Source: a virus
Taxonomy: Duplodnaviria; Caudoviricetes
Direction: 5' to 3' (one strand)
DNA length: 64,000 bases
Virus record (IMG/VR): IMGVR_UViG_3300036971_000130
The position numbers and the translations under genes were made by a program. The notes under the pieces are model-generated. The model ran no database searches. It was given only the letters and a program-made list of their open reading frames with translations, and was not told the DNA's origin. Positions 558 through 63,218 of the stretch are shown here, piece by piece. Position 1 is the stretch's first letter; each line of letters opens with the position of its first letter.

Positions 558-643
558 GACCCCATCATGGGTTGCCGCACTGGCGACGTCAAAGCTGCCG
601 AAAACCCAAGAAGCGGGGGCCGTGGCCCCCGCTTCTCAACTGG

Positions 644-1726
644 TCACTTCCGACGGAACTTCGACGGGAAGCGGAGGGTGCGGACCGTCTGCTTCAGCCG
701 GACGAAGGCACCCGGCTTCAGGTCATCCTCCGGCTTCCACTCGTCCACGTCCGCCACGAACCCTTCCTCGGCCTCGTAGTTGACGAGATGCCCTCGATGT
801 CGCCGTCGCCGTCGTAGTACGGCGACGGCGACATCGTAGGCATCGAGGGCGATCTCGTCAACTACGAGATCGCCCTCGATGCCCTCGATGTCGCCGTCGC
901 CGTCGTAGTACGTGACCTGGGTCACGTCGATCGGACGGTCGATTTCGCAGATCACCTGGAACTGCTCGACCCGCATCTTGCAGGTCTCCCGGTTCGGGAC
1001 CGACACGACATGGGCCGGGTCGAACCGGACAGCGATCGTCCGCTGGCCCCACCGGAAGGCGTACTGGTGGGTACCGATGTGGAGACCGGGAGCGCAGGAG
1101 ACCTCACGGTCGTCGCACACCATGTTCCGGGGCATGCGCACCGTGTCACCGGGGGCGTACGGGATCTGGCCCTCGAACCGGACACCGTTCACCCACGCCA
1201 CGCCGCTGTTGACCGACGTGCCCTCACGGGTGATCCCCTTGTGGCCGACGACGTAGCCGTCCTCGTCGATCGTCACCATGTCGTTGGCGAGCAGCCACGA
1301 GAACAGATCCTCGATGGCCTTGTACGACGGGTTGTTCTGCAACCGCTCCAAGAAGTGCAGGAGGTTGCCGTAGGAGTCGCCCTGGCGGAACTTGTCAGCG
1401 ATGTGCTGGGCGATCACCGAGTGCTGCGGCACACCGTCGAGAAGGACGGTGCCGTCCCGCTGGACCTCGATCCGACCGCCGCTGGAAGCGGCGACGACCT
1501 GGGCCATCACGTCCTTGCCAGCGACCGTGTCGGCCAGCAGCGTCCAGTCGGTCTCACCGGAGTTGATGAGGTCACGGATGAACGGGTAGAAGGACGAGTC
1601 CGAGGTCACCGACATCTCAGCGTAGTCGGTGGAGGTGATGGTCAGGACCGAGACACCGGTGGTGTGATCGGTGACGGTCCGAGTGGTGAGTAGTTCCATC
1701 TTGGGTGTGTTCTCCTTGTTGGTCAT
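644..1726 (-). CDS. rIIB: rIIB-like phage protein
   Basis: FLERLQNNPS, DGYVVGHK, MPRNMVCDD..CAPGLHIG, VVSVP..CKMRV motifs; directly downstream of rIIA-like gene; start set by motif at 1732-1741. Confidence 0.85.
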   Translation of the reverse strand: MTNKENTPKMELLTTRTVTDHTTGVSVLTITSTDYAEMSVTSDSSFYPFIRDLINSGETDWTLLADTVAGKDVMAQVVAASSGGRIEVQRDGTVLLDGVPQHSVIAQHIADKFRQGDSYGNLLHFLERLQNNPSYKAIEDLFSWLLANDMVTIDEDGYVVGHKGITREGTSVNSGVAWVNGVRFEGQIPYAPGDTVRMPRNMVCDDREVSCAPGLHIGTHQYAFRWGQRTIAVRFDPAHVVSVPNRETCKMRVEQFQVICEIDRPIDVTQVTYYDGDGDIEGIEGDLVVDEIALDAYDVAVAVLRRRRRHRGHLVNYEAEEGFVADVDEWKPEDDLKPGAFVRLKQTVRTLRFPSKFRRK

Positions 1727-1746
1727 GGTTCCATCATGGGTGGTGG

Positions 1747-3699
1747 TCATGCCACAGCCGAAGCGGCGGCGGCGGTAGCAGCCCGGTCACGGTCGGCCAG
1801 GGCGATGTACGAGTAGAAGTCGGCCTGGTTGCCCCACGAACTGAAGTGGTGGGCCAGCGGGTACCGCTCGTCGAAGACGTTGTTCTCGGGGATGTCGATG
1901 CTCTCGTCCTCGACGGTGAACTGACGGAGCCACGACGGGAAGCGCCGGTTCCGGCAGGCGGCGAGGTCGGCGTACTCGACACGAAGCTCGTGATCCTCGG
2001 GGAGACGAGCGAGATCGGAGGTCCAGCGACCACGGGCTTTCAGCGAGATGGCAGCGGCACGACGGTCGGCCATCGGAAGGGCCTTGTAGTACGCCTCACG
2101 CTCCTTGTCGGTGAGCGAGACGACCTTCGCCGTGCGGCTCACCAGGGTGCTGTACTGCTGGCGGGGCTTCAGGCAGACGATGTAGCGCACTTCCTCCGGC
2201 ATGAACGGGATCAGGGTCACCGATTCGTCACGGTTGTAGTTGTCGCAGCGGAGCACGGTCTCGTCCTTCAGCGACGTAACCGGAACGTCGGTCCATTCCT
2301 CCGTCGAACGGTCCCAGACACGGTACGCCTGAGCCGACCGGGCGAGGCCGGAACTGGACCGGACGATCTTGTAGTCCTCCACGTCCTTCGCCGTGTAGGT
2401 GATGAAGCCCGTCTCGCCGGTCAGGTCGAGAAGTTCCGACTTGACCGGCTCCGAAGCGAAGATCACGTTGACCGTCTCGTTGCCGTACTGGGACGAAGCG
2501 ATGACGGAGTTCACCATCTGAGCCAGCTTCGTTCCGTTGGTCGTCGGGTCCACGCCATCGAAGAACACCGTGGGCCGATCGAGCAGGGTCGTGAGGGAGA
2601 ACGTCGGCATGAACATGCGACCCTTGCCGGGAGCCTTCGAGTAGACCGACAGCGACGGGAAGTCCTTGTTGAGATCGTCCACGTCGATCGGCTTCTTCAG
2701 GTCGATGCCGTTCCACTTGTAGCCGACGATCTCCCTCACCGTCGGGGACTCGTTGATGAGGCGGATGGCCTCGATCGCCGTCTCCGCAGCATCGACCTTC
2801 TTCGCCACCTTCTTGCGGAGCGAATCGAGGGCCTTGGTCCGAAGGCTGTCGAGGCGAGTGGCGTTCTCCGGGGTCTCCATGAGGTAGTCCCGGCTCGGGA
2901 CCGGCTTCAGGAAGCCGATCGGGGCGTGGACGTAGAGCGGGAAGGGCACCCGGATGTTCGTGTCGAAGATGATGCCGCCGACGATCGCCTTCATGTAGCT
3001 CTCGCCATTGATCATGGCGCAGCCGTACTTGTTCTTGGCGACGACCTTCTCGTCCTCGTAGATGGACGGCAGAACCTCACCGTTCAGGGTGACGGTGCCC
3101 GGCTCCATGCCGTAGGCGAGGCGCTTGGCACCGCTGATGAAGTCCATGATGTCGCTCGGGTCGGTGACCGAGGCGTTGATCTCGGTGCCGGACTGCGGAC
3201 GGGTCTCGATCTGGTGGTAGTGGCCGACGAACATGCCGCTCTCGTCCTGGGCGTACACGCCACGCCAGGTCTGGCCCTCGAAGGTCGTGATCACCGAGAA
3301 GGTGTGGGCGATGGCGATGAGCGCCTTCGCACCGAGACCGAAGCCGCCGATGGCGTCCTTGTCCTCGGCCTTCGTGGAGTTGCCGAACGAGCCGAAGTTC
3401 TGGGCGAGGGTCTCGATAGACATGCCGATGCCGAAGTCGGTGATCGTGATGGTCGTGCCACCGTGCTCGTCGATCGGAGCCGTGAAGTGGACCTCCGGCT
3501 TGACGCCGAGAGCGACGCAGGCGTCGATGGAGTTCGAGCCGGTCTCTCGGGCGACGGCGATGCCGGAGTTCCGGTAGATGCGGGCGAACAGCGCCGTCAT
3601 GGCAGCGACCGACTCGGGGCTGAACCCGACGGTGGACTGGAAGGCGAAGCTCTTGGCGTCGATGTCGTTGGCGGTGGTGGGCTGGGTGTTCAGGATCAT
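1747..3699 (-). CDS. rIIA: rIIA-like protein with N-terminal GHKL/HATPase domain
   Basis: RETGSNSIDA, DFGIGMS, STK..IGGFGLGAK, SGTEI, PSRDYL; paired with rIIB. Confidence 0.85.
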   Translation of the reverse strand: MILNTQPTTANDIDAKSFAFQSTVGFSPESVAAMTALFARIYRNSGIAVARETGSNSIDACVALGVKPEVHFTAPIDEHGGTTITITDFGIGMSIETLAQNFGSFGNSTKAEDKDAIGGFGLGAKALIAIAHTFSVITTFEGQTWRGVYAQDESGMFVGHYHQIETRPQSGTEINASVTDPSDIMDFISGAKRLAYGMEPGTVTLNGEVLPSIYEDEKVVAKNKYGCAMINGESYMKAIVGGIIFDTNIRVPFPLYVHAPIGFLKPVPSRDYLMETPENATRLDSLRTKALDSLRKKVAKKVDAAETAIEAIRLINESPTVREIVGYKWNGIDLKKPIDVDDLNKDFPSLSVYSKAPGKGRMFMPTFSLTTLLDRPTVFFDGVDPTTNGTKLAQMVNSVIASSQYGNETVNVIFASEPVKSELLDLTGETGFITYTAKDVEDYKIVRSSSGLARSAQAYRVWDRSTEEWTDVPVTSLKDETVLRCDNYNRDESVTLIPFMPEEVRYIVCLKPRQQYSTLVSRTAKVVSLTDKEREAYYKALPMADRRAAAISLKARGRWTSDLARLPEDHELRVEYADLAACRNRRFPSWLRQFTVEDESIDIPENNVFDERYPLAHHFSSWGNQADFYSYIALADRDRAATAAAASAVA

Positions 3700-3704
3700 G
3701 GCGT

Positions 3705-3734
3705 CATCATGGGTGGCTGATCTGGGGGTGTCCA
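3705..3734 (-). promoter_or_regulatory. Complete example of the element promoter: TGGACA-N17-CATGAT-N6-ATG (rIIA)
   Basis: Minus strand TGGACA cccccagatcagccacc CATGAT gacgcc ATG. Confidence 0.8.
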
Positions 3735-4614: not shown

Positions 4615-5316
4615 TCAAAGCTCGAAGTCGTCGTCACCGAGGGAGTTGGCGGCTTCCTCGGCACGCTTCTCGTCCTCGGTGGCGACCGGCTCGAAGTCGC
4701 TGAAGTCGTCGAACTCGGTGGACTTCTCCGCATCGTCGACAGCGGGGGTCGTGTCAGCGAACTCGTCGACCGGTTCGTCGGTCTTGTCCGACTTGTCCGT
4801 CTTGTCGGCGGTGGCACGCTGCTTGCTGGCCTGACGCCTCGCCGGAGCCTTGCGCTTCCGGCCGAAGTTCACCGGCACCTCGTTCTCGGCGTCCACGGTC
4901 TGCTCGTGGTTGACGACGACCGAACCGTCGGTGGCGAGGGCGGCGGTGACCGCAGCGGCGGTGGCAGCGGCGACGGTCTTCTTGTCGAAGCCGTCGACGA
5001 CGATCACGATGGATCGACCGGGGGACTCGTCACCGAGGGACCGGACGTTGAGGCGGGCAGCCGAGGGGTTGACGCCGTAGAACTCGGCCATCGAGCCGGT
5101 GAGCGGCTGGTCGGTGCGGGTCGTGGTGGGCTCGGTGCCGTAGATCACGGTCGTCTCGGTCACGAGGTTCTTGACGGTGGCGTCGGCGGACACGTCGGGG
5201 ACCATCGTGATCTCGACCTCGTAGGGGAGGCCCTTGGCGATCTCGTTGGCCTTCGCCTCGTCGTCTGCTGTGGCGACGGGCACGTTGGTGCTCTTGCGAG
5301 CGATGATGTAGGTCAT
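4615..5316 (-). CDS. Hypothetical protein with basic patch and acidic tail
   Basis: Strong codon bias; motif variant ACCCATAATG 6 nt upstream. Confidence 0.75.
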   Translation of the reverse strand: MTYIIARKSTNVPVATADDEAKANEIAKGLPYEVEITMVPDVSADATVKNLVTETTVIYGTEPTTTRTDQPLTGSMAEFYGVNPSAARLNVRSLGDESPGRSIVIVVDGFDKKTVAAATAAAVTAALATDGSVVVNHEQTVDAENEVPVNFGRKRKAPARRQASKQRATADKTDKSDKTDEPVDEFADTTPAVDDAEKSTEFDDFSDFEPVATEDEKRAEEAANSLGDDDFEL

Positions 5317-5384
5317 GGACTCCATTATGGGTGGTGGGGCTGACAGGGTTGGACAGGGTCGAATACCCGACCCATGTTGTGGAT

Positions 5385-5768
5385 ATGACCGTGACCTTCG
5401 CCATCGACGCCGCCTGCTTCTGCACCCCCGCCAACTGCTGGGAGAACTGCGAGGAATTCCGCTCCTTCCACTACTGCGGCCACGCCCACAAGGCCGCCGA
5501 GGTCATGCGTGAGCAGTGCTCACTTTGCTCACTCTCCGTGAACCTTGCGAACGTAAGGGCGAGCATCACGATGTCGATGTTCGGGTTCGACTACGCCGCC
5601 GGAGACACCTCCGGAACGGTCGATCCAGAGGTCTTCGTGACCGGTCTCGTCGAGGTCGGTTTCGGCGGTGGAACCGTCGATCAGCGGCTCGATCTGAGCA
5701 CCCTGCAACGGCTGATCCGGCTCGGCCAGGGTGCCGCCGATCGCAAGGCCCAGATCGTCTGGGCCTGA
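5385..5768 (+). CDS. Cys/His-rich (SWIM-like zinc finger) hypothetical protein
   Basis: CFC...C...C..YCGHAH; full promoter TGGACA(5350)-N17-CATGTT-N6-ATG. Confidence 0.65.
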   Translation: MTVTFAIDAACFCTPANCWENCEEFRSFHYCGHAHKAAEVMREQCSLCSLSVNLANVRASITMSMFGFDYAAGDTSGTVDPEVFVTGLVEVGFGGGTVDQRLDLSTLQRLIRLGQGAADRKAQIVWA

Positions 5769-7893: not shown

Positions 7894-8388
7894 ATCCGAG
7901 AGCCACCGCACGAAATGATCGACATGGTGACGGACCGCCCGATGGGCGTCGTCCCACAGGTCAGAGACGAAGTACCGGTAGCCGTACGGCGCACTATCGT
8001 CTTCGATCATCCGATACAGATGTTTGACGTGCATGAACATCTCCGACATGTCTTCCCCGAGGATGTCGGAGATGATGAGGCCGATGACCGCAGCTTCACG
8101 TTCCTCCTGGATCATGTCGAACAGACGACGGCTAGGACTGCACCAGCCGTACTCGACCATCTTCCGTCGTTCCTTGGTGGCAACGAGGTAGTGACCAAGC
8201 TCGTGAGCGGTGTACTCGATCACCGAGTTCTCGAACAGGGTTGACCCGTTCCAGTTTGACCCTGGGGCATCCCGCCTGAACCCCATGCCAACCTCAGTCA
8301 TGTACCGCTTCAGGATGGCGACGTTCTGACTGGCTTCAGGGTTGGTCGACGGCTTCGATGATGTGATGTCTTGGCCTGAAACGATCAT
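7888..8388 (-). CDS. HExxH protein, EpmC/YfcM-like motif (paralog 2)
   Basis: TAHELGHYLVATKERRKMVEYG...EEREAA; tail RHHVDHFVRWL; motif variant ACCCATGCTG upstream. Confidence 0.6.
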   Translation of the reverse strand: MIVSGQDITSSKPSTNPEASQNVAILKRYMTEVGMGFRRDAPGSNWNGSTLFENSVIEYTAHELGHYLVATKERRKMVEYGWCSPSRRLFDMIQEEREAAVIGLIISDILGEDMSEMFMHVKHLYRMIEDDSAPYGYRYFVSDLWDDAHRAVRHHVDHFVRWLSDL

Positions 8389-8406
8389 GTGCTCAGCATG
8401 GGTCGG

Positions 8407-8652
8407 TCAGACCTTCGTGTCCAACCAGCGAACGAATCGGTCGATGTGGCGTCGGACCACAGGAGATACCTCAGACCAACGGCTGGTGACTTCGAGAGCG
8501 GTTCGGCTGTACCTGTCGAAGAACTCGACGGGCATCGTGGTGCAGAACATGTGGTCGTTGACGATCCCGAAGACATCACAGAGAGACACCCCGAGGACGG
8601 CCGCTTCGACTTCCTCTTGGTTGCCGGAGAGGGTCTTGGATGGTCGCTGCAC
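8407..8652 (-). pseudogene. C-terminal remnant of the same HExxH family (paralog 3)
   Basis: QEEVEAAVLG...RRHIDRFVRWL without HExxH. Confidence 0.55.
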
Positions 8653-8700: not shown

Positions 8701-9981
8701 TCATCCCTGACCGAACTTCGTGTACGTCCTCTCGAACGGTGTCGGACCGAACATCCAACGGTCGAGATCCGGCGGCGTCGAGAAGATCGGGGCGACATCC
8801 CTCAGCCAGTACGGCACGCCGTAGAGCAGCGACGAGTTACCGATCGCTGATGTGAACGGCTCGTAGTCCGAAGGAGCAAACGTCACCGATGACGGGTCCG
8901 ACAGCGACACCGGCTCCCAGAGGTTATCCCCTTCGCCGGTCGGTCGGATCGCCTTCATCTTCAGGAAGTCGTCAGAGAAGCCGCCCAACTCGGGGAACCA
9001 GTCCTTCCAGCGAACGACAGCCACCCGCTCACGGAGACGCAGACGCCGGGCGTTGATCCTCGGGTTCAAGGCGTCGAGGATGCCCTTCGTCAGCGGGTTC
9101 ATCACCTCGCTGTCACGGGCGTCGGGGTCACCGGCGTCGACGAAGACGATGATGGTTCCGGACTCGTCGTACTCGGCGTGGGAGAGGATCTCCAACCACT
9201 TGTCGAGCTTCGCTCTCGCTCTCGTCTGACGAGTCGATGTGGTGATCTCGAAGACGATGCGGAGGCCGTCGCCTCGAATCATCATCAGGTCACCAGCGCC
9301 CGAGGTCGTCACCGGATGGGTGCCGGTGACATCGAGCAGGTGGTGGGCTGCCATCCCTTCCCCGAAGACCGCCGCCGGGTTACAGAACTCAGCGATCCGG
9401 AGTCCCAGTTCGACCGACAGGATGTTGTGGCGGTCATGTCGTGGTCCGGCAGTCGGGTTGATCCCGCCGGTGACCTTCAGCCACTCGGTGAACGGCAACT
9501 CGGAGAGGATCGACGGGATCGAACGGTCACGGGTCATCCGCCAGACCATCGGCACGCCAGCGGCGTTGATCGAGAACCGACCTCGTTCAGCGAGGTGACC
9601 TGACCACAGATGACGGAGCGGTAGGGGAACCTCCGCTCGTCGTCCGCCCGGCTGGTACATCTTCGAGTCCCACCCTCCGAACGCAGCAAGCTGGTCCGAG
9701 GTCCCGGTGCGCCACATCATCAGAGCGCCGAGCGCCTTGCGGGCATCCTCGTCGGTGGACTTGAAGGCTTCGACAGCGATCTCCGGCGTGTCCCGCTTGT
9801 CTCTGAAGGTCATCCGGCTGATCCCGGCCTTCGCACGACGTTCAGCGAGACGACGTGATTCCCAGGAGACCTGAGAACTGTCACCCCAGAGACCGGCCCA
9901 GAACGGATCGACTCGGTTCTCGGACCGGTGCAACCGGTTGGGGACGACCGAATGGGCGTCCTCGAAGTACGTGACCGTCAT
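8701..9981 (-). CDS. Replication-relaxation-family-like protein (wHTH plus PD-(D/E)xK), candidate relaxase
   Basis: TSDQLAAF helix, RHDRHNIL, GDLMMIRGDGLRIVFEIT; near VirD4-like ATPase. Confidence 0.55.
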   Translation of the reverse strand: MTVTYFEDAHSVVPNRLHRSENRVDPFWAGLWGDSSQVSWESRRLAERRAKAGISRMTFRDKRDTPEIAVEAFKSTDEDARKALGALMMWRTGTSDQLAAFGGWDSKMYQPGGRRAEVPLPLRHLWSGHLAERGRFSINAAGVPMVWRMTRDRSIPSILSELPFTEWLKVTGGINPTAGPRHDRHNILSVELGLRIAEFCNPAAVFGEGMAAHHLLDVTGTHPVTTSGAGDLMMIRGDGLRIVFEITTSTRQTRARAKLDKWLEILSHAEYDESGTIIVFVDAGDPDARDSEVMNPLTKGILDALNPRINARRLRLRERVAVVRWKDWFPELGGFSDDFLKMKAIRPTGEGDNLWEPVSLSDPSSVTFAPSDYEPFTSAIGNSSLLYGVPYWLRDVAPIFSTPPDLDRWMFGPTPFERTYTKFGQG

Positions 9982-9994
9982 GCCCTCGACTGTA

Positions 9995-10354
9995 TCAGGA
10001 GCAGGAGGACCAGCGAGGATCTACCTGGTAGTAGCAGACCTTCGAGTGCTTCGACTCACCGACGAACTTCCCCTCGACTCGAACGATGCCGGTCTTGGAG
10101 TAGTCGATCTTGGTCACCACCCGCAGCTTCCTCAGCGACCCCTTGTAGGTGCAGAGGAAGACATCGGTGGCCGTGGACCCCTGACGTTCGGCGCTGGTGC
10201 TCTTGCACGAAGCCTTCCCGCTCGCCCCGGCCGGACGGAGGATGGTCGAGATGTCCTGGACCATCGGCTTGATCTTGGCGTCGTGGTCAGCCGGGACACA
10301 GGCTGACAGCACGAGGATGAACGCCACGACAGGGAGGATCAGGAGCTTCTTCAT
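9995..10354 (-). CDS. Basic secreted lipoprotein (MKKLL family)
   Basis: Lipobox LSAC, four further Cys; TAGAAT-N6-ATG. Confidence 0.8.
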   Translation of the reverse strand: MKKLLILPVVAFILVLSACVPADHDAKIKPMVQDISTILRPAGASGKASCKSTSAERQGSTATDVFLCTYKGSLRKLRVVTKIDYSKTGIVRVEGKFVGESKHSKVCYYQVDPRWSSCS

Positions 10355-10387
10355 GTAGTGATTCTACCACCCACGGCGAGGCCAGGG

Positions 10388-10780
10388 TCAGACCCGGAAG
10401 CAGAAGTACGGCGACCCGCTGATCTTGCCGTCATTCAGACGGACCTTGCAGTGCAGGTTGTTCTTCGGGGCCGACGAGGTCGCCACGTCGATGAACTCGC
10501 CTTCGCCCTTCCACTCACCGTAGAAGGCGTGCGTGACCACCTTAAAGGTGCCGGTGGCCTTCGGCACGGTGCAGGACCACTCGTTGCTCACCGACGGACG
10601 GCCGTTGCTGGCCTTGCTGTCCCACTGCCGGATGCTCTTACAGGTCGGCTGCTGGCCTCCACGGGACTGCCGGAGGATCAACTCGGCGGATTCCTTGGTC
10701 ACCGAGTTGTGGTACGACGGGATGCAGGCGGACAGCACGAGGGCGAATGCCACGACGGGAAGAACCAGGAGCTTCTTCAT
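10388..10780 (-). CDS. Basic secreted lipoprotein (MKKLL family)
   Basis: Lipobox LSAC, four further Cys; TAGACT-N6-ATG. Confidence 0.8.
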   Translation of the reverse strand: MKKLLVLPVVAFALVLSACIPSYHNSVTKESAELILRQSRGGQQPTCKSIRQWDSKASNGRPSVSNEWSCTVPKATGTFKVVTHAFYGEWKGEGEFIDVATSSAPKNNLHCKVRLNDGKISGSPYFCFRV

Positions 10781-13272: not shown

Positions 13273-13350
13273 CTCAGCCTTTCACGGAAACGTGCAGATC
13301 AGAGTAGCTGAAAGTTGCGGGACCCGCCACATCTGACCCATGATGGAGCA

Positions 13351-13680: not shown

Positions 13681-13689
13681 CCACCACCC

Positions 13690-48544: not shown

Positions 48545-48560
48545 ACCCACCATTATGGGT

Positions 48561-51487: not shown

Positions 51488-51494
51488 TCTCGTC

Positions 51495-52540: not shown

Positions 52541-52552
52541 CATGATGGCCCC

Positions 52553-53104
52553 ATGATCCACACCGCTGTCCTCTCCGGGGTCGACAAGGCAACGCACACG
52601 CCAGTCGAGCACTTCGTCGTCTGGCTGAACGCCCGAGCGACCTGTCCCGGCTGCGACCAGTCCGACCGACCTGTGGTCCGAGACATCCCGGTGATGGTCG
52701 ACGACCGAGGCGACATCCAGGCAGTCAGCCAGCAGCACGGATGTGGTTCTTGGTGGGGGCCGGACTGGGACTCGATCAAGCTCGGGTCCGATGATGACGA
52801 CGACCGCAAGGCCGTCATCACCCACGCTCTCGTGAGGCAGGCGGAAGAAAACCGATCGGCGGATCGCCAGGTGGTCAAGGAATCCCTCGAAAGCGACATC
52901 AGGTGGGTCCTGTCGCTCGTCAACGACACGCACGATCCCGACATCGAAGACCTTGACGATCTCCGTTTGGAGATGTCCACGGGCAACGAGGCCAACCCCG
53001 GCGTGTACTTCGACGACGACAAGATCGTCGCCTGGACCTACGACCCGTGGTCCGAGGATATGACGGAGCCGGAACTCATCACGGTCACCGAGACAGTCCG
53101 ATGA
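52553..53104 (+). CDS. Hypothetical Zn-finger protein (in-frame alternative start at 52520)
   Basis: CPGC...HGCG; two motifs in tandem upstream. Confidence 0.65.
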   Translation: MIHTAVLSGVDKATHTPVEHFVVWLNARATCPGCDQSDRPVVRDIPVMVDDRGDIQAVSQQHGCGSWWGPDWDSIKLGSDDDDDRKAVITHALVRQAEENRSADRQVVKESLESDIRWVLSLVNDTHDPDIEDLDDLRLEMSTGNEANPGVYFDDDKIVAWTYDPWSEDMTEPELITVTETVR

Positions 53105-53244: not shown

Positions 53245-53575
53245 CACAAGCCGTACAGGAGACGGGGACGACCAAGAGCGGTCGATTCTCGACGAGTTGG
53301 TGGATGCTCGAAACCGAGTGCCGCCACATCGTTCGACGGCCCGTGAAGTTCATCCCCGGAGCGTCCGGCGGACGACGAGGGTGGGCACTGCTGCATCACC
53401 CGCCTGCCTCCGATGACAGCCTGCCACCTCCAACGAAGGTGAAGTGCCCCATGTGCAACGGGGACGGTTGACCGACAATCGTCTGCAAGCCGAACACCAC
53501 CGACGCCTCGGACTGAAGTTGGACATGGGCGAACACACCACCCATGTTGAGTACATGGAACTTCTCAGCACCACC
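53221..53575 (+). repeat. 355-bp direct repeat, copy 2
   Basis: See copy 1; offset 1035 bp. Confidence 0.95.
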
Positions 53576-53896: not shown

Positions 53897-54144
53897 GCCT
53901 CCGCCTGAGCCGGAAGGCTCCCGAGGCCCTTCGAGACTTTGACCCGGTTCCCCGCCATGAGGGTGAACCGGGTCAGAGTTTTTGTCGTGAACCCCTCTCC
54001 TTCACAGACCTCGGCGGAAGCGCCGACAGCGCCGTGCTTGATGATCGCCTTCTTGGCTTCGGACTTCGCCAGCGTCAGCGCATCGAAGGTCTCCGACGCT
54101 GCGACGGTAAGTCCCTTGTCGACGATGATGAACCGGTAGGACAT
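53851..54144 (-). CDS. Hypothetical protein
   Basis: TAGCCT-N6-ATG. Confidence 0.55.
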   Translation of the reverse strand: MSYRFIIVDKGLTVAASETFDALTLAKSEAKKAIIKHGAVGASAEVCEGEGFTTKTLTRFTLMAGNRVKVSKGLGSLPAQAEAQKDMSTRRSGTSML

Positions 54145-54220
54145 CCGGCGAGGCTATCCAAAGGCGTCCGTTTCGTCTAGGTTGGTCCGATCCACCCTGA
54201 ACCAAGAGTAGGGTTCCGCC

Positions 54221-54979
54221 ATGCCACCACGGAAGCGTGCGGCCTCGAAGACGGCCAAGAAGACCCCAGCGAAGAAGGCTCCCCCGAAGCCGAAGCTCGA
54301 CCTGAACTCGGTCGTGCCCAAGGGCGTCCGGACCGATGAGCAGAAGGCGTACTGGTCGACGAGAACCAAGTCGGGCACCTCGGGGATCGTGGAAGTCCAC
54401 ACCGGCGACGTGACTCAGGCGATCGTGGACTTCATCCTGGCGTCCCCGTCGATCGTCGGAGCCGTGGCGTGGCTGACCTCGGGGCCGATGCTCGAAGCGA
54501 TGTCGCTCGTCGGGGATGTGACCATCCTCGTGCAGAAGGAAGCGGACCTTCAGGGCAAGACCGCCCAGTCGAGAGCCCAGTTGGCGAAGTACCGTGCGAT
54601 CGGCAACGGAGTCCTGAAGAACGCTCTCCCGGAGCCGATCAGCCAAGCCCGATGCGGGCCTCGCCTCGGCCCCGTCCGTTCCGTCGGTGCCATCCACGGC
54701 CGGTCGTCGAGGCACACACCTCGGATGCACAACAAGTTCTTGGTCCGAGGTCACTACCGTGGTCGCACCTGGGTTCCTGAAGCTGTCCTCACCGGTTCAT
54801 CGAACGGCTCGATCAACGCCGGGTACTCGTTGGAGAACATCCTGATCGTCCATGACCCGGATGTCGCCGCCTTCTACCTCGACTACTTCGCTCGGATGGC
54901 AGCGATCTCCGAACCGATGAACTCGGTGCATCGCACCGTGCAGCCAGAGTGGGTTCAGCAGCCCCCGGCGAAGAAGTGA
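54221..54979 (+). CDS. Phospholipase D-family (single HxK) nuclease-like protein
   Basis: AVAWLT, MHNKFLV, TGSSN...ENI. Confidence 0.85.
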   Translation: MPPRKRAASKTAKKTPAKKAPPKPKLDLNSVVPKGVRTDEQKAYWSTRTKSGTSGIVEVHTGDVTQAIVDFILASPSIVGAVAWLTSGPMLEAMSLVGDVTILVQKEADLQGKTAQSRAQLAKYRAIGNGVLKNALPEPISQARCGPRLGPVRSVGAIHGRSSRHTPRMHNKFLVRGHYRGRTWVPEAVLTGSSNGSINAGYSLENILIVHDPDVAAFYLDYFARMAAISEPMNSVHRTVQPEWVQQPPAKK

Positions 54980-56132
54980 TGGGGCTCAACCTAGGTACGC
55001 TCTGGCCTGGGTCCGTGCTGTCGTTCCTGATCGGGTACGGGCTCTTTCGTTGGCGGCTCCGCAAGAAGGACCCGGTCGGAGCAGCCAGATGTCTGGTTGT
55101 CGGTTTCGGGGTCTCCGCTCTCCTGTTCATGGCCCCGATCGCTCACGCACGGCTGGATTGCTACTCGTGCTGACCCCGACCCATGATGACGGCATGAACA
55201 GACTCGCCTACCTCATCGGTACCGCTGTCGCCGCCGTCGTGGTCGGAACAGCGAACCGGCTGCTGGGTCTCCGTGGAGGTTCCCGATGACATCGGCCATC
55301 CTGATCCTTCTGGTGCTCGCCGCTCTCGCTGCGCTCACGATCATCGTCGTCTACGGTGACGCTGGGTCGGTCCGCTCCTACGTCAAGGACGCTTGGTTGC
55401 GGGTCAACGTCAAGATGTCGTCAAGGATCGACTCGGCCCTGGAACGGGAGGAAGACCGTTGATCTACACGTCCAAGTTCTTCGATCGACCGGGGCTCGAA
55501 CCTGTCGAGTACCGGATCATCTCAGACGAGGAAGCGATGCCCGAGCTTCTTCGTCGGGCGCAGGCGTCCGCAGCCAATGACGACGCCGACGGCGTGGTCC
55601 TGAACCGGGTGCTCGCTGTCGGTCCCTTCCGGCTGATGTCCCGCAAGGAGGTCTCGGCTCCCACGAGTCGCTGGCCGCAACTCGTGGCCGAGAACTTCGG
55701 TCCGACCACCACGATCGGACTCAACTTCCGTTCGACGCTCCACACGACCACAGCCTGGAAGGCAACATGAAGTTCGTTCTGAACATCCCCGGATGGGACC
55801 CGACCGAGACCAATGTCGAGGTCATCAACCCGCCTGCCGACCTCGACGAGAACGAAGACCTCCTGGTCGAGATCACGGAGTCGATGGTCAGAAGCCTTCC
55901 TTGGAAGCCCGCTCCCGGCGAAGCGTGGAGCGTCTTCCTTCGGAACCGATCGGTCTTCGGGGTGAAGATCGGACTGTCCACTCAGCGTGGCTCCTGGCTT
56001 TTGAGGGTTCGCTTCCCGAAGGTCAGCTTCCGACTGCGTGCGAACGGGCTGTTCGTCAGCTTTCGTCACGGGACCGACTACCGTGCTGCGGTCCTCATCT
56101 GGCGCTGACCGACGCCACCCATGATGTTCAAC

Positions 56133-57095
56133 ATGGAACCAGTCATCTACAGCGGCAACCTCTACTACCGAGACGGCATTCCGACCCCGACAGGGGAGTC
56201 GTTCATCACCGACGACGGATTCGAGTTCCTTCGGGTCCCTCACCGGGTTCTCCGGACGGCCGTCGTCGAGAATGGTGAGGCGCTCGTCAAGTCGGCGGGA
56301 ACTAGCGTCCCCGTCAGGGATCTGAAGCCCGGCATGTACGTCAACGGCGAGCGGGTCAAGATGATCGGCGTCGGGAAAGACAAGCAATTCACGGCATGGA
56401 CCGACGATGGCACGCCGATCCCCCTGCTCGACACGGTGTTCGTCGACGGCTGTGTCCCTGTCTCCCCTCCCAAGTCGTTCATCCCCCGTTCCGTCGACAG
56501 AGGCGACCTCTACGTGGTCAACGGCAAGGTCCACACCGTCATCAGCACGAGCGTCGGCGGCGGCATGGTCCTCACAGCGAGAGGCCAGAGCACCAAGTAC
56601 ATCCGCATCCCCAATGATGCCGAGAAGCTCGACCGGAACCTCGTCGACAACTGGATCGACAACACGCCGATCCCACTCGACCCGGCTGCCCTCTCCCGCA
56701 TGCTGGTTCAGGGGCGAGTCGAGTTCTTCGAGGTGGACCCCGCCGGGCGAGAGGAACTGACCATCGACGGGGATGTTCGCTCTGGGACATGGCGCACTGT
56801 GACCGGTGTGCGGTTCAACTACGACCTTCGGTACTACCGGATCGTCGACCGTGACACGTTCGACTTCGCAACGATGATGGACGCCATCAAGAACGGGCGT
56901 GTCAGCATCAGGGGGTTCAACGTGGACTTCATCGAGTTCGATCCTGACCTCAGTCGGCCGTGGACCTTCGGCGGAGGTTCACAGAAGCACCTGGCATCGC
57001 TCACGGATAGCCAGGTCGCAGCCGCCGAAGTCTTCGATGTCAAGGTCAACCCGCACAACGCCGAGCAGATGAACTACGTTCTCTGCATCGACTGA
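56133..57095 (+). CDS. Family-G hypothetical protein
   Basis: Motif at 56117; DLKPGMYV, VDRGDLYV, AIKNGRVSIRG. Confidence 0.65.
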   Translation: MEPVIYSGNLYYRDGIPTPTGESFITDDGFEFLRVPHRVLRTAVVENGEALVKSAGTSVPVRDLKPGMYVNGERVKMIGVGKDKQFTAWTDDGTPIPLLDTVFVDGCVPVSPPKSFIPRSVDRGDLYVVNGKVHTVISTSVGGGMVLTARGQSTKYIRIPNDAEKLDRNLVDNWIDNTPIPLDPAALSRMLVQGRVEFFEVDPAGREELTIDGDVRSGTWRTVTGVRFNYDLRYYRIVDRDTFDFATMMDAIKNGRVSIRGFNVDFIEFDPDLSRPWTFGGGSQKHLASLTDSQVAAAEVFDVKVNPHNAEQMNYVLCID

Positions 57096-57107: not shown

Positions 57108-57878
57108 ATGACCGGCTCGAAGAAGGTTCGGTTCGCTGAACTCGAAGCACGAGGGTGGACCCGTGAGATCGCTGGTCTCTACGGGCTACGGCCCCGTTCG
57201 CACTGGTGGGAGATCGACGAAGCTCTCCGCATCGAGAAGTCAGGCCGCTGGCAACGTGATCGTGATGCGGTAGCCCGAGGTGAGACGATCGTCTTCACGA
57301 AGGCGATGCTCATTCCCCGAGGGTGGACCGACGGGTCGATCAAGACCTTCCTCGGTGAGCCCGATCATGTCGTCGACCTCCCGAAGAAGCGCAAGGCGTT
57401 CTACTGGCGTTCCGGTCGTGTCCTGCATGCCGAGGCAAGCCCGGAGTGGCAGGAGAAGGCCCAGAAGGTGCTCTCGGAGCGTCCGAAACGTTCCGCTGCG
57501 GTCCAGCAGGTGATGGACACGAAGATCGCTGCGGTGAAAGCCGCTTCGGAGGAACAGGTCGAGAGCCTGTGGATCAGGGTCCCGGCAGGGTCCACGATCA
57601 GCGGCCTCACCGAGAAGGCGATCAGGTCCCAGGTCGACTGGCTCCGAGAGAAGAAGGGCATCGACTACAACGTCTCGAAGATGACCGATGCCGACCGAGC
57701 GAAGTGGCTCCGGAACTACGTCAGGCACGAGTTGACGAACTACGACACGCTGCTCCGAGGTCTATCTGCCCGGTTCCGTGGTCAGCCTGGTGTCGTCGCC
57801 ATGTACGAGGAAGTGGTCCGGCCTCACGTCGACCGGATGGTCGAAGACGCTCTGGCTGAGTTGCCCGACCACCCATGA
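57108..57878 (+). CDS. RGWT-repeat hypothetical protein
   Basis: LEARGWT, LIPRGWT..I..FLGEPD, YVRHELTNYD; ends DHP* in the motif. Confidence 0.7.
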   Translation: MTGSKKVRFAELEARGWTREIAGLYGLRPRSHWWEIDEALRIEKSGRWQRDRDAVARGETIVFTKAMLIPRGWTDGSIKTFLGEPDHVVDLPKKRKAFYWRSGRVLHAEASPEWQEKAQKVLSERPKRSAAVQQVMDTKIAAVKAASEEQVESLWIRVPAGSTISGLTEKAIRSQVDWLREKKGIDYNVSKMTDADRAKWLRNYVRHELTNYDTLLRGLSARFRGQPGVVAMYEEVVRPHVDRMVEDALAELPDHP

Positions 57879-57928
57879 TGTGATCGGCCGATCAAGTCGA
57901 TGGTCTGACCACATCACGGGAGACACCC

Positions 57929-58390: not shown

Positions 58391-58437
58391 TGGCGTGACG
58401 TTGGACGCCACAGCAACCGCCAACCCATGATGGTGGC

Positions 58438-59189
58438 ATGACCAAGACCTTCACCAAGCGTGTCCGCTCGTTCGCAGACACCCTCACCGAAACGATCGGA
58501 CGCATCCAGTTCGTCGAGCAGGATGCCGACGCCACTGGCCCGATGATCGTCGAGTTCAACTCGTACATCCACGACGAGATGGCCGGAGGAAGGATCAAGT
58601 CGCTGACCATCAGCGACACCGAGACCCCCGGCTCCATCAAGGGGTCGCCCTGGAAGGCGAAGCGGGTCCGTAACATCTGGTTCGTGACCTTCACCTTCCG
58701 GGTCGAGGAAAGCGACTACGACATCACAGCGGTCGACGTGACGATCGAGTCGAAGACGACCCCCTCCCTCGAAGATGTCATGTACCTCTCGTGGACGACC
58801 GACCGACTGGACAACCGATGAGCAAGACCTTTACCACGAACATCGAATCGACCGTCTACACCTTCGACGACGAGGTCGGCCCCGTCCAGTTCCTCATCCA
58901 AGGGCCGGACGATCACGAGTCCATGATGGTCGATTGCGACTCGTACATCCACGGGGATGTAGTCGATGGGGACTCGATCAAGACGTTGACCATCAGCGAC
59001 ACCGAGACCCCCGGTTCCATGAGGGGCAAGCCCCGGAAGGCCAACGAGATCGGTGGACGGTGGTACGTCACCTACGTCTTCCAGGTCGACGGAGCGGACT
59101 TCGCCCTGACCTATGTCGGTGTGCAAGTCCCCGTCGACGGGACCCCCGATCTCAACGAGGGCATGTACCTCTCGTGGAGGACCGCATGA
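58438..59189 (+). CDS. Tandem paralogs (58438..58821, 58818..59189)
   Basis: Shared SYIH...IKxLTISDTETPGS..G.P.KA...MYLSW. Confidence 0.8.
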
Positions 59190-59593
59190 GTTACCAGGTC
59201 GATCTGCCAGCCGGTACCTACTACGTGGGTGACCCTGTCCACACGATCCCCGAGGATCGCTTCGATCGGTGGTTCCGGGACGCTCAACTGCACTCCGAGG
59301 TCGCATTCTCGGCGCACCGAGCGTTCGGCCAGGACTACGGCCAGGACACGTTCATGGAAGCGAAGATCGACGGGAAGCTCGCTGTCGGCGCTGAGACGAA
59401 CAGCCGGAAGCGGACCTACGTCGGCAGCAACGGCTTCTTCTTCTACATCGAGACCGGCCTACTCGGGGTCGTCCCCGTCGAGGTCGGAGTCCCCTCCGGT
59501 CTCAGTCAGGTCGTGACCTTCGAGGACGATTTCTCCTGTTCGAACGACTACGAGATCATCACGATCGGTGACATCAAGATCAGCACGATGTAG
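59186..59593 (+). CDS. GDP...(D/E)(S/T)G family protein (paralog 3)
   Basis: LPAGTYYVGDP...IETGLLGVVP. Confidence 0.7.
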   Translation: MSYQVDLPAGTYYVGDPVHTIPEDRFDRWFRDAQLHSEVAFSAHRAFGQDYGQDTFMEAKIDGKLAVGAETNSRKRTYVGSNGFFFYIETGLLGVVPVEVGVPSGLSQVVTFEDDFSCSNDYEIITIGDIKISTM

Positions 59594-59602
59594 CATGCCT
59601 CG

Positions 59603-60645
59603 ATGGTGACCGACCCGTGCTTCGCAAGGTTCTCTCCGCACTCGGATCTGCACCTCGGGGTCAGAGGCCACGACAGCCAGCGACGTGATCGACTGGTCGA
59701 CGCCGTTGCTTCGGAGGCTGCTGATGGTGGGTGGCCGGTCATCGAGGTCAACACCAGGACCACTTCGAGGTGCGAGTCTGCGCTCGGTCAGATCGAAGCG
59801 GAGATCCACCATCGCCTCATGTCGAAGCTGACTCCGTCACCGTTCCTGGTGGTGGTCTCATCGGTCACCGACCTCCTGGATCGCACGAGCCCGGCGGTGT
59901 TGGGCCAGATCGTCCGGCACGGCCACAAGGCTGGGTTCCATGTCCTGGCTGGCTTCGACGGCACGTTCAGCACCGGTGCGTCGATCATCTCGGAGGCGAT
60001 CCCGACCTGGATGCATCTCGATCCTGTACGCCACATCGAGTCGAACGAGAACCTCCGCTCGAACGAGATGGTCCTGGCTCGCACATCGAGGTTCGATGTG
60101 GTCGAAGTGTCCGTTCCTTGACAGGCCGATGAACAGGCTGTAGACAGTCGCATCCCCATTCAAGGAGTTTCTGAATGACTGACGCCACGTTCGCCGGGTG
60201 GAATGGCCTGATCGTTGCCGGAGACGACGAGCACACGATGGGTGCCGTCCATGCCGTACTCGAAGGCGAGTACGACCTCGTTCCGTTCCCGTCCAGCCGT
60301 GTCCCGAACCTCGAAGCCCTCAACGGTGAGTTCAGCCGCCGTCACGAGAAGGCCGTTGCTCGGGGAGGGAACCAGTTCAGTTCTCCCCTCGGCCGTCATC
60401 TCGTGCTGGTCGTCGACGAGAGGACCGACAAGAAGACCGACGACGAGGCCCAGGCCGTGATGACCAAGATCGCCCGTGAAGGGCGTTCGTACTGCGTCTC
60501 CTTCGTCCATCTCACTGGTGAGGAACTGCCGGTGAACCACGACCCGATGGTTGCGAAGCTCTCCGTCGGAGAGCCCACGGAGAGCCATCACACCGGCTCG
60601 TACGAGTTCGGTTCAGCGACGATCCCGCTGTCCCTCCCACTCTGA
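59603..60645 (+). CDS. Two degenerate FtsK-like domain proteins (59603..60121, 60175..60645)
   Basis: EAEIHHR..FLVVV..IVRHGHKAGFHV; EFSRR..LVLVVDE..IAREGRSY. Confidence 0.5.
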
Positions 60646-60760: not shown

Positions 60761-61234
60761 ATGCAAGACATCAAGCCCAAGGACATCTCCTACCTGCGGA
60801 TGTGCCTGTCGATCGCCAACGAGTTCTCTACCTGCGGGAAGCGCCAGTACGCAGCGATCATCGTCGACCACCGTGGCACGGTCATCGCCACCGGCTACAA
60901 CGGCACGCCGTCGGGGTTCGAGCACTGCAAGGACGGCGGCTGCCCGAGGTTCTTGGAGAACACCCCGTCGGGGACGAGCTACGGGAACTGCCTCTCGGTT
61001 CACGCTGAGGTCAACGCCATCATCCGTTCGACTCCGGCGACCCGTGAACGGTCGACCCTCTACGTGAACGGCCTGCCGTGCTGGGACTGTGCGAAGGTCA
61101 TCATCGGTTCCGGCATCCCTCGGGTTGTCTGCCTCGGTGGACGTGACACCCTCGACGAGAAGTTGGTGATCGACCTGTTCGGCAGATCCGAGGTTTGGTT
61201 CCACGAGGTTCCGCCATCCATGTTGGAGGCATGA
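60761..61234 (+). CDS. dCMP deaminase (ComEB-like)
   Basis: STC.KRQ, ATGYNG, HAEVNAI, PCWDCAK. Confidence 0.92.
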   Translation: MQDIKPKDISYLRMCLSIANEFSTCGKRQYAAIIVDHRGTVIATGYNGTPSGFEHCKDGGCPRFLENTPSGTSYGNCLSVHAEVNAIIRSTPATRERSTLYVNGLPCWDCAKVIIGSGIPRVVCLGGRDTLDEKLVIDLFGRSEVWFHEVPPSMLEA

Positions 61235-62097: not shown

Positions 62098-62866
62098 GAC
62101 GTTGGCTACTGGTTCTGAGCCTGGTCGCTCTGGTGTCCTGCTCAGCCAACGACTCGACCAACCAACCGGACGAGACCACGACGACGGAAGCCCGGCCAAC
62201 CCAGGCCGAGACTCGGACGAGGGTCGACCTGGGCGAAAACTTCCCGATGGTCGCATCCGAGTGCGACGGCGACAACCGGGTGTACCTCGCTGCGAGCGGC
62301 GACAACATCGACATGTCGGTGATAGAGACCCACTACTCGTGCTGGGAAGCTCCCGAGAGCAGCGACCCGATGATCCTTCGGTTCGGAGAGTCGATGCCCA
62401 AGGTCATCGCTCGCTGCGACAACGGCAACAGGGTGTATGTGGCTGTTGGCGAGGATCAGAAGGCGAAGATGGTGGTCGTCAAGAACAACTACCGGTGCCA
62501 AGACTGAGCCACCCATGATGGGGGTGACACCGGCGACCGCTGGTGCATGACCCAACAAGGTGAGTTCACATGAAGACCCGCATCGCCCTCGCTCTCGTCA
62601 GCCTCCTGTTCGTCACGTCCTGTGCCGGGATGGACAAGGCCACGGAGCAGTACAAGGACGCTCCGAGGGGCAAGGCCGACAACTCGGCTGCGGACACGAT
62701 CAACTTCCCCGACGGCTTCTCCAACGTCGCCGTGAAGTGTGATGGCCCGAACCGGGTGTACGTTGCCTTCAAGGGCAACGACAACCGTGCAGCGATCGCT
62801 GTCGTCGGCAACGACGATCGTTGCCCGTGGGGTGAAGGCGTCACCACCACGACCACCGGGAACTGA
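62094..62866 (+). CDS. Two related lipoproteins (62094..62507 with two repeats; 62570..62866 with one)
   Basis: Lipoboxes; V..xCDxxNRVY.A repeat unit. Confidence 0.75.
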
Positions 62867-62928
62867 CGGTCTCGGGTCTTCGTGGCAGGGTGCTTGCGTC
62901 CTGATCGAAGATCATCTAATGTGTCGCA

Positions 62929-63008
62929 CATCCCCCACCCCTACGTGACAGCCGCAAGGTGGTCCGTAGTTGAGAAGGCCCGGTCCCTCCCCCGACCGGG
63001 CCTTCTGC
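62929..63008 (+). ncRNA. Candidate structured small RNA upstream of cas3
   Basis: TTGCGT-N17-TAATGT promoter; GCAA-tetraloop stem; 13-bp terminator-like stem. Confidence 0.5.
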
Positions 63009-63218
63009 ATTCCCAACCCATGATGGCGTTGGACCATGGATCTAGAACCCGCCTGATCGACATGGCTGCGTGATGGTGCTACGGTCCCATCTCCACGACA
63101 GGACGGAACCGACGATGGACCTGATGGATTACTTCATGGCTGCTCAGAACTCATCTGATGATGAGGGGTTCACGATCGTCGAAGGAGACGACGAGGGGTC
63201 GTCTGAGGGCACGCCCGA

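Follow-up and report, generated by a model that had tools for sequence, protein, structure and literature searches.

A probable private promoter for leaderless genes on a megaplasmid-like actinobacterial element

Introduction

Leaderless promoters of the type TANNNT-N6/7-ATG are known in Actinobacteria and Deinococcus-Thermus (PMC4633059; PMC12340547), and plasmid pBS32 of B. subtilis encodes SigN, a self-activating sigma factor that works with host core RNA polymerase (RNAP) and has a plasmid-borne regulon with a consensus of its own (PMC6751061). Here, we analyze a 64,000-nt stretch of DNA (the window; 62% GC) from the IMG/VR virus record IMGVR_UViG_3300036971_000130, which belongs to an element of ~233.5 kb in total (the proteins of the window lie on a 233,542-bp contig in JGI and Logan data), and describe a short motif, ACC-CATnnT, that recurs through the window in register to ATG codons and in all likelihood serves as a promoter confined to the element. 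The reading proposed below combines the private sigma regulon of a mobile element with the leaderless promoters of Actinobacteria.

Several other systems are relevant to the comparison. The gp55 late promoters of phage T4 have the sequence TATAAATA and no −35 box, while the middle and late promoters of Thermus phage phiYS40 reportedly, in 2007 work of Sevostyanova et al., give leaderless mRNAs that start at the start codon. A TAGRRT-type −10 element with an extended TGn is the classical actinobacterial, Streptomyces-type arrangement, and in extended −10 promoters region 3.0 of sigma reads the bases just 5′ of −12. Promoters of the sigma-28 (FliA/WhiG) type have the consensus TAAA-N15-GCCGATAA. 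The stoperators of cluster A mycobacteriophages are repressor sites, present as dozens of copies of one asymmetric 13-bp sequence in short intergenic gaps and oriented with transcription.

The class A motif stands in fixed register to ATG

The exact sequence ACCCATGATG occurs 29 times in the window, compared with a mean of 0.10 and a maximum of 1 in 100 dinucleotide-preserving shuffles of the window, and the looser pattern ACCCATnnT occurs 43 times, whereas Markov-3 simulations with the window as training sequence average 7.6. The curated list of these sites, termed class A, has 47 members, of which 38 have an ATG after the CATnnT hexamer, the spacer being 6 nt in 31 of these and 7 nt in the other 7; neither GTG nor TTG is found 6–7 nt after the hexamer at any curated class A site. 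With the A of ATG numbered +1, C stands at −1 in 33 of the 38 ATG-headed sites, T in 4 and A in the remaining one (pyrimidine in 37/38).

The class A consensus is CC-ACC-CATGAT-Gg-N3-C-ATG. The per-position count took 40 copies, in which A-15, C-14, C-13, C-12, A-11 and T-10 are invariant because they were set by the search pattern. Upstream of these positions, C-17 is present in 35/40 copies and C-16 in 27/40; in the 3′ part of the hexamer, G-9 is present in 36 and A-8 in 33, and T-7 is invariant; downstream of the hexamer, G-6 is present in 37, G-5 in 23 and C-1 in 27, with G-6 and g-5 forming a G-rich discriminator.

An earlier note on this DNA, made by a model from the letters, had listed 46 positions, all of which were found to be present, as were the divergent back-to-back pairs 5323/5370, 41125/41155 and 45425/45488. 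One site, 48942(−), a CATGTT hexamer with TGGACA, was absent from that list, and its count of 37 copies with ATG in register was right about the register and slightly low in number. The class A sites are listed below by window coordinates, strand and composition, with open reading frame abbreviated to ORF and Shine-Dalgarno to SD.

555..592, minus, TTGACG-17-ACC-CATGAT-N6-ATG, 55-aa ORF
1724..1741, minus, ACC-CATGAT-N6-ATG, rIIB-like gene
3697..3734, minus, TGGACA-17-ACC-CATGAT-N6-ATG, rIIA-like gene
5314..5332, minus, ACC-CATAAT-N7-ATG, divergent partner of 5350–5387
5350..5387, plus, TGGACA-17-ACC-CATGTT-N6-ATG
8386..8423, minus, TGGACA-17-ACC-CATGCT-N6-ATG
13336..13353, plus, ACC-CATGAT-N6-ATG
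13686..13694, plus, 9-mer without ATG at +6/7; ORF may begin at the motif's own ATG, 10 nt past the upstream stop
16180..16197, minus, ACC-CATGAT-N6-ATG
17235..17252, minus, ACC-CATGAT-N6-ATG
17858..17876, minus, ACC-CATGAT-N7-ATG
18499..18517, plus, ACC-CATGAT-N7-ATG
19442..19470, plus, variant TGGACA-17-ATC-CATAGT without ATG at +6/7 (perhaps leadered)
22690..22707, plus, variant ATC-CATGAT-N6-ATG; motif TGA is the upstream stop
24161..24178, minus, ACC-CATGAT-N6-ATG
25606..25623, minus, ACC-CATGAT-N6-ATG
26870..26887, minus, ACC-CATGAT-N6-ATG
27860..27897, minus, TGGACA-17-ACC-CATGTT-N6-ATG
28991..29008, minus, variant GCC-CATGAT-N6-ATG, 24-codon ORF
29432..29450, plus, variant ATC-CATGAT-N7-ATG; motif TGA is the upstream stop
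29508..29516, plus, 9-mer, ATG 9 nt 3′
30776..30813, plus, variant TGGACG-17-ATC-CATGAT-N6-ATG
32622..32630, plus, 9-mer; probably short leader, GGGAG before ATG ~37 nt 3′
33316..33333, plus, ACC-CATGAT-N6-ATG
36881..36918, plus, variant TGGACA-17-ACT-CATGTT-N6-ATG
38112..38129, plus, ACC-CATGAT-N6-ATG, 362-aa gene
41117..41134, minus, divergent partner of 41155
41155..41172, plus, ACC-CATGAT-N6-ATG
43674..43691, minus, heads 11-codon leaderless mini-ORF before SD-led gene
44734..44771, minus, TTGACA-17-ACC-CATAGT-N6-ATG
45417..45434, minus, divergent partner of 45468–45506
45468..45506, plus, TGGACA-17-ACC-CATGAT-N7-ATG
48542..48560, minus, ACC-CATAAT-N7-ATG, WGR+PARP gene
48925..48961, minus, TGGACA-16-ACC-CATGTT-N6-ATG, absent from the earlier list
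49272..49280, minus, variant ACC-CATATT within repeat-rich non-coding region
50160..50168, plus, 9-mer ~48 nt 5′ of SD-led lipoprotein-like gene (ATG 50219)
51480..51497, plus, motif TGA is the upstream stop
52485..52522, plus, TGGACA-17-ACC-CATGAT-N6-ATG
52538..52555, plus, second copy, 33 nt 3′ of the preceding one
53520..53557, plus, TGGACA-17-ACC-CATGTT-N6-ATG, paralogous cassette of 52485
55179..55196, plus, heads 31-codon hydrophobic ORF
56117..56135, plus, ACC-CATGAT-N7-ATG, 320-aa gene
57871..57879, plus, 9-mer ~50 nt 5′ of SD-led signal-peptide gene (ATG 57929); TGA is the upstream stop
58402..58440, plus, TGGACG-18-ACC-CATGAT-N6-ATG
61216..61233, plus, variant ATC-CATGTT-N6-ATG
62511..62519, plus, 9-mer ~50 nt 5′ of SD-led lipoprotein-like gene (ATG 62570)
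63016..63024, plus, 9-mer directly after terminator-like hairpin, 5′ of Cas3-HD gene

Like the TANNNT leaderless promoters, class A has a −10-like hexamer with A-11 and T-7 (38 sites with a 6–7-nt spacer) that ends 6–7 nt before the start, lacks an SD sequence and would have ATG as the first codon of the mRNA. Unlike them, it has a fixed C at −12 in all copies, where actinobacterial leaderless promoters have T, and CCACC at −17..−13 in place of T and TGn; among C-12 heads, positions −15..−13 are ACC in 30/36 and TGG in only 1. The comparison made in the earlier note with the sigma70 leaderless architecture holds for the register and for A-11/T-7; class A departs from that architecture in lacking T-12 and in not being used by chromosomes among the genomes searched. 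In having extra conserved bases directly 5′ of the hexamer (−17..−13), which can make a −35 box dispensable, class A resembles TGn extended −10 promoters; it differs in the bases themselves, CCACC or CCGCA, and in that their recognition by region 3.0 is a prediction.

Some copies overlap or adjoin coding sequence. At about seven sites (22690, 26887, 29432, 30796, 51480 and 57871 are listed), the TGA within CATGAT is the stop codon of the preceding gene, and the variants with ATC for ACC coincide with stop-codon overlaps onto the upstream gene. A cassette is duplicated in 52400–53900, where the promoter and first codons at 52485–52522 and 53520–53557 are identical save for CATGAT versus CATGTT. 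Leaderless mini-ORFs lie directly behind class A copies at 43640–43691(−), where 11 codons precede an SD-led gene, and at 55179–55290(+), where 31 hydrophobic codons end in an ATGA overlap with the next gene.

A −35 box points to a promoter acting at the DNA level

A T[TG]GAC[AGC] sequence stands 16–18 nt 5′ of the hexamer at 14 sites, compared with ~0.3 expected; TTG falls within −37..−33 at 21/49 sites, compared with a background of 2.5%, and T-36 is present at 29/49. The consensus of this −35 box is GGTTGGACAc, and about half of the copies have a degenerate GGTTGGACA-like box at 17-nt spacing. The earlier note had reported −35-like boxes at ten copies, correctly as to their presence and with too low a count. 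A strict −35 box accompanies 8/10 sites with CATGTT, CATGCT or CATAGT versus 5/31 perfect ACC-CATGAT sites (Fisher p=4.5e-4), bearing out the earlier suggestion that the box compensates for weak hexamers. From the −35 box statistics and this compensation, we conclude that the signal is often bipartite and spans ~38 bp, which replaces the promoter of ~15 nt proposed before.

Genes with plain SD sequences likewise occur in the window, and three class A copies (50160, 57871 and 62511) lie 45–50 nt 5′ of SD-led genes. Class A would thus act at both 6 nt and ~50 nt from the start codon, which, together with its spacing-dependent −35 box, argues for a DNA-level promoter and not a translation signal. 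The three clearest leadered SD genes (ATG at 50219, 57929 and 62570, all plus strand) are all signal-peptide or lipoprotein-like at the N-terminus, suggesting that exported proteins avoid the leaderless format.

The fixed distance to AUG and the absence of SD sequences could also be accommodated by a motif that acts on RNA, either as a processing site just before the AUG of a polycistronic RNA or as an SD-independent translation enhancer, and the genes do lie in dense same-strand arrays without classical terminators (U-tract terminators show no enrichment in the window). We consider such a role very unlikely, since −35 boxes spaced at 17 nt, and their compensation for weak hexamers, are features of DNA-level promoters, and since the motif also occurs 45–50 nt 5′ of SD-led genes and in divergent back-to-back pairs; furthermore, there is no convincing pairing with the 3′ end of 16S rRNA. 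A ACCCATGATGGGT palindrome or operator as the main function was rejected, as GGGT is present in a minority of copies only and the reverse strands head no genes.

As in T4 and phiYS40, a mobile element here marks many genes with one extended −10-type signal; unlike in those phages, the element is plasmid-like, half of the copies keep a −35 box, and the sequence is unrelated. The class A sites also resemble stoperators in being many transcription-oriented copies of one asymmetric site on an actinobacterial mobile element. Stoperators, however, have no fixed distance to starts and no −10/−35 geometry, whereas the register of class A to ATG is exact.

A second, discrete class of gene heads

Ten gene heads in the window have TAGRRT or TACAAT-type hexamers in the same register as class A. 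These class B heads, of the type TGg-TAGRRT-N6-ATG, correspond to ordinary TANNNT-type leaderless promoters.

9979..9997, minus, TACAGT-N7-ATG
10352..10369, minus, TGG-TAGAAT-N6-ATG
10778..10795, minus, TGG-TAGACT-N6-ATG
15774..15792, minus, TAGAAT-N7-ATG
32209..32226, plus, TGG-TAGGAT-N6-ATG
47000..47017, minus, TAGGAT-N6-ATG
47234..47251, minus, TACAAT-N6-ATG
54142..54159, minus, TAGCCT-N6-ATG, divergent partner of 54206
54206..54223, plus, TAGGGT-N6-ATG, PLD-like gene
59588..59605, plus, TAGCAT-N6-ATG

A TGg lies 5′ of 4/10 class B hexamers, namely TGG-TAGAAT, TGG-TAGACT, TGG-TAGGAT and the TAGAAT head at 15776(−), in which the TGG is one triplet further upstream (GTGTGGTAG-TAGAAT). Positions −15..−13 are ACC, ATC or ACT in 35/36 C-12 heads versus 0/10 T-12 heads (p=3e-9), with no intermediates. 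By sequence, class B looks host-type, and class A and class B appear to be two discrete promoter classes.

The motif is private to the element, with parallel motifs in relatives

In its 17-base form, CCACCCATGATGGNNNCATG, the motif is present 5 times within the window; elsewhere, in one genome each of 185,579 species, it has 51 single, chance-level matches and is never multi-copy. Similarly, ACCCATGATG-N5-ATG occurs 19 times in the window, compared with 12 times in total, and at most 2 per genome, in 401 sampled Actinomycetota genomes. Exact and motif scans of viral_contigs and metagenome_contigs gave only single chance matches, and the window's own contig was not returned. Among the genomes searched, the class A motif is confined to the element. 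The earlier note had reasoned that a motif equally common before host genes, and fully active with host SigA alone, would be an ordinary promoter; no such abundance was seen in the 401 Actinomycetota or the 185,579 species genomes searched. A full-text literature search for the motif strings returned only unrelated primers, and one on Arthrobacter megaplasmids and sigma factors returned nothing relevant.

Relatives of the element carry motifs of their own in a parallel position. In L297, a metagenomic relative (64% GC) whose coupling protein is 47% identical to that of the element, (A/G)GCCACCCAC-N9-(c)ATG occurs ~14 times in 22 kb. The motif of the A. caoxuetaonis plasmid NZ_CP099467.1 is GGTGAGAG-N13-gtCCGCACACATAG-N5-(Y)ATG, in which GGTGAGAG is the −35 box; CCGCACACATR-N6-ATG occurs 52 times in this 375-kb plasmid and its reversed-pattern control 0 times. 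In pACHL01, a plasmid from P. chlorophenolicus A6, CCGCACACA-N8-ATG occurs 79 times (control 0), the motif common to it and the A. caoxuetaonis plasmid being CCGCACACAT-N7-ATG, and a Curtobacterium plasmid has 15 copies of the CCGCACACA-type motif (control 0). In 81 Micrococcales genomes, the Arthrobacter-type plasmid motif has 2 matches in all. No enriched motif was found in the 13 kb of L298, a relative with 70% GC, and the Curtobacterium region around the coupling protein has mostly ordinary TANNNT heads.

Aligned on ATG, the three motif types share CC at −17/−16, R-15, C-14, C or A at −13, C-12 and A-11, together with a pyrimidine, mostly C, at −1. They diverge 3′ of −11, with TGATG in the present element, Cnnnn in L297 and either CATAG or CATnn in the Arthrobacter type. 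By this alignment, the family-conserved core is CCRCMCA at −17..−11, and the A-11/T-7 hexamer is specific to this element. The invariant A-11/T-7 hexamer of the earlier note thus stands for this element and not for its relatives, which keep the core without T-7. Both the confinement of class A to the element and the retention in relatives of the upstream block, not of T-7, are further differences from the TANNNT leaderless promoters.

Two side observations concern these plasmids. The Curtobacterium plasmid NZ_CP126274.1 (L310, 116785–139073) has a near-palindromic 10-mer, CGGACACCGG/CCGGTGTCCG, 7 times in 22 kb, and the A. caoxuetaonis plasmid NZ_CP099467.1 (L305, L306) bears housekeeping-like secE and trxB genes and an Lsr2 gene that adjoins the gene for a FliA-like sigma.

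Candidate readers of the motif

The plasmids with parallel motifs encode the following sigma factors.

A. caoxuetaonis plasmid, 52 motif copies: RpoD/SigB-like, yes (WP_227897361.1, 370 aa, regions 1.2–4); FliA/WhiG-like, yes (WP_227897748.1, 285 aa, adjoins Lsr2 gene)
pACHL01, 79 motif copies: RpoD/SigB-like, yes (WP_081434859.1, 990 aa, 51% identical over regions 1.2–4); FliA/WhiG-like, no
Curtobacterium plasmid, 15 motif copies: RpoD/SigB-like, no; FliA/WhiG-like, yes, plus ECF sigma

Both RpoD-like sigma genes are headed by the plasmid motif, CCGCACACATT-N6-ATG, and the FliA-like gene of A. caoxuetaonis has a host-type head, TATGAT-N6-ATG. Aligned to Streptomyces HrdB, the plasmid RpoD-like sigmas retain region 2.4 (WWIRQAI[ST]R) and the recognition helix of region 4.2 (TRERIRQ), and their region 3.0 helix reads PVH[YF]H[DE] versus PVHMVE in HrdB. 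The normal region 4.2 fits TTGACA-like −35 boxes (TGGACA here, GTGAGA in relatives). That the plasmid sigmas differ from HrdB exactly at the region 3.0 helix would fit recognition of the bases upstream of the hexamer.

Based on these observations, we lean, with somewhat better than even confidence, towards the motif being the core of a private bipartite promoter for leaderless mRNAs that is most likely read by an element-encoded sigma. The promoter element would consist of C-17 C-16 A-15 C-14 C-13 C-12 A-11 T-10 G-9 A-8 T-7 G-6 g-5 with C at −1. RNAP would melt the duplex at A-11 and take the A of ATG as its first transcribed base, such that most class A genes would be made as leaderless mRNAs, with one promoter per gene, and a few copies would drive 45–50-nt leaders with SD sequences. 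The most likely reader would be host core RNAP with a sigma70-family factor encoded elsewhere on the element. Our best guess for this factor is an RpoD/SigB-like paralogue, whose normal region 4.2 would recognize the TTGACA-like −35 box and whose altered region 3.0 would recognize CCRCM at −17..−13, where housekeeping sigmas read TGn. Sequence logic and the comparison with relatives appear to lend the promoter part of this proposal good support. A dedicated factor, as put forward in the earlier note, is plausible, with indirect support from the two Arthrobacter-type megaplasmids that have their own motif in the same register and their own sigmas.

The proposed sigma would resemble SigN in that the motif is confined to the element and in that its position upstream of the RpoD-like sigma genes on the two Arthrobacter-type plasmids may, by analogy, reflect positive feedback. 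SigN is ECF-like and has a limited DNA-damage regulon, whereas the candidate here is RpoD/SigB-like; furthermore, the motif heads a large share of genes (52–79 copies per plasmid), and the transcripts would be leaderless.

Several points weigh against an element-encoded, RpoD-like reader. As the earlier note had said, no dedicated factor is visible in the window: Pfam and PHROG scans of its 90 ORFs found no sigma or RNAP domain, so the putative sigma of the element would lie outside the window. The Curtobacterium plasmid has its 15 motif copies with only FliA-like and ECF sigmas, and no single plasmid sigma is common to the three motif-bearing plasmids, pACHL01 lacking the FliA-like type. Region 2.4, the reader of −12, is near-canonical in the plasmid sigmas and does not by itself account for the fixed C-12. 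The ORF behind the copy at 13686, and perhaps the one behind 32622, may begin at the motif's own ATG, and the host housekeeping sigma could tolerate CATGAT.

In one alternative, a host sigma of the SigA/HrdB type reads CATGAT as a weak −10 element and the CCACC flank is an operator for a repressor or activator of the element, serving as a global on/off switch. Class A shares A-11, T-7, a G-rich discriminator and, at 17-nt spacing, a TTGACA-like −35 box with SigA-type promoters, and both the Curtobacterium plasmid, with motif copies and no RpoD-like sigma, and the lack of a reader in the window would fit. We nevertheless regard this arrangement as unlikely: a protein bound at −17..−12 would clash with regions 2 and 3 of sigma, class A and class B are discrete without intermediates, the relatives lose T-7 and retain CCRCMCA, and chromosomes, rich as they are in SigA promoters, have next to none of the motifs.

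A different element-encoded reader, a FliA/WhiG-like (group 3) sigma in place of the RpoD-like one, is distinctly improbable in our estimation. In its favor, ACCCATGA agrees with the sigma-28 −10 consensus GCCGATAA at 5/8 positions; genes for such sigmas are present on the A. caoxuetaonis, zg-Y1110 and Curtobacterium plasmids; and in A. caoxuetaonis the host-type head of the FliA gene and the plasmid-motif head of the RpoD-like gene would fit a cascade. However, pACHL01 has 79 copies and no FliA-like gene, the −35 boxes are TTGACA-like (TTGGACA here, GGTGAGAG in A. caoxuetaonis) and not TAAA, and group 3 sigmas lack region 1.2, to which the G-rich discriminator points. A homology search with the A. 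caoxuetaonis FliA-like sigma did not return this element among its best 120 matches.

Least probable, and in our view close to negligible, is that the −17..−5 block is read by a non-sigma70 polymerase encoded elsewhere on the element, either a T7-like single-subunit or a phage-type multisubunit RNAP. The block spans the same extent as the binding region of T7-type promoters, and the element has phage-like rIIA/rIIB and PARP genes. No RNAP beta subunit is encoded, however, on either Arthrobacter-type plasmid with a parallel motif (A. caoxuetaonis and pACHL01), the canonical −35 spacing and A-11 fit sigma70-type recognition, and −4..−2 are variable and GC-rich.

Extending the proposal of an element-encoded, RpoD-like sigma beyond this element, we tentatively suggest, as a reading with slightly less than an even chance of being right, that a lineage of Micrococcales-type conjugative megaplasmids expresses a large part of its genes through an orthogonal transcription channel. 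This channel would comprise a plasmid RpoD/SigB-like sigma with a re-tooled region 3.0, CCRCMCA at −17..−11 and leaderless mRNAs; the sigma would govern its own gene through the code, and the code would have diverged between plasmids (CCACCCATGATG here, GCCACCCAC and CCGCACACAT in relatives). If so, the diverged codes would insulate the expression of each plasmid from the host and from other plasmids, and hundreds of kb of plasmid sequence, from Arthrobacter, Pseudarthrobacter and Curtobacterium (common soil actinobacteria) and from the uncultured element studied here, would be expressed via a private sigma–promoter pair and not via housekeeping promoters, which would explain the control of cost and timing in such large replicons. 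The pairs would also provide naturally orthogonal, compact (~40 bp, no 5′UTR) expression parts for high-GC hosts and a natural series of promoter and sigma variants for how region 3.0 reads the bases 5′ of −12. Cultured carriers of the parallel motif exist in P. chlorophenolicus A6 and A. caoxuetaonis zg-Y453.

Nature of the element

Two neighboring genes of the window connect the element to plasmids.

10777..13272, minus, type IV secretion system (T4SS) coupling-protein-like gene, 831 aa, link to Micrococcales megaplasmids
8701..9981, minus, 426-aa gene, syntenic with the coupling protein in four relatives

Relatives of the 831-aa protein are 38–48% identical, one of them, from Arthrobacter terrae, being annotated by NCBI as a type IV secretory system conjugative DNA transfer protein; tblastn places them on megaplasmids of Arthrobacter, Pseudarthrobacter, Paenarthrobacter, Glaciihabitans and Curtobacterium, and more distantly in Bifidobacterium. 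The 426-aa neighbor is 28–42% identical and adjoins the coupling-protein gene in 4/4 relatives (L297, L298, L299 and L304). Because the coupling protein and its syntenic neighbor are shared with Micrococcales megaplasmids, the best description of the element is that of a replicon resembling a conjugative megaplasmid, with phage-like genes and an actinobacterial host that is probably Micrococcales-like, rather than that of a plain phage; it may be a phage-plasmid.

Among the 90 ORFs, Pfam and PHROG matches include rIIA/rIIB-like, WGR+PARP, dCMP deaminase, RF-H-like release factor and HD_4 hydrolase genes. No phage structural or packaging gene was found among them, the PHROG matches being only of rIIA/rIIB and PARP type. 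A gene with a Cas3 HD domain lies at the right edge (62975–63995), where a hairpin, a class A copy and then the gene follow one another, and is cut by the window end. A near-identity DNA search against phages and plasmids gave no match to the window, the tRNA and Rfam scans of the window were empty, and no close rIIA relatives were found. Rhodococcus phage Grayson, which has the best rIIB identity (41–43%), was rejected as a comparator, as it has 40% GC and unidirectional operons and lacks the motif. The contigs L001 and L296, from the same population, are ~100% identical to the window and of no use for conservation tests; L001, a Logan contig, differs at 822–877 by a short repeat-bounded indel.

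The RF-H-like release factor is truncated (37467–38099, plus), retaining the PCRF end and the RF-1 domain with GGQ, and its nearest Atlas cluster is partly viral. The non-coding stretch 48990–49650 has four GTCATTTCATG-type repeats at 48998–49247 and three perfect DnaA-box-like TTATCCACA cores within GTTATCCACAGGC(T/A)GAAG, two in tandem at 49288–49329 and one inverted at 49629–49647, and may be a replication origin or iteron region.

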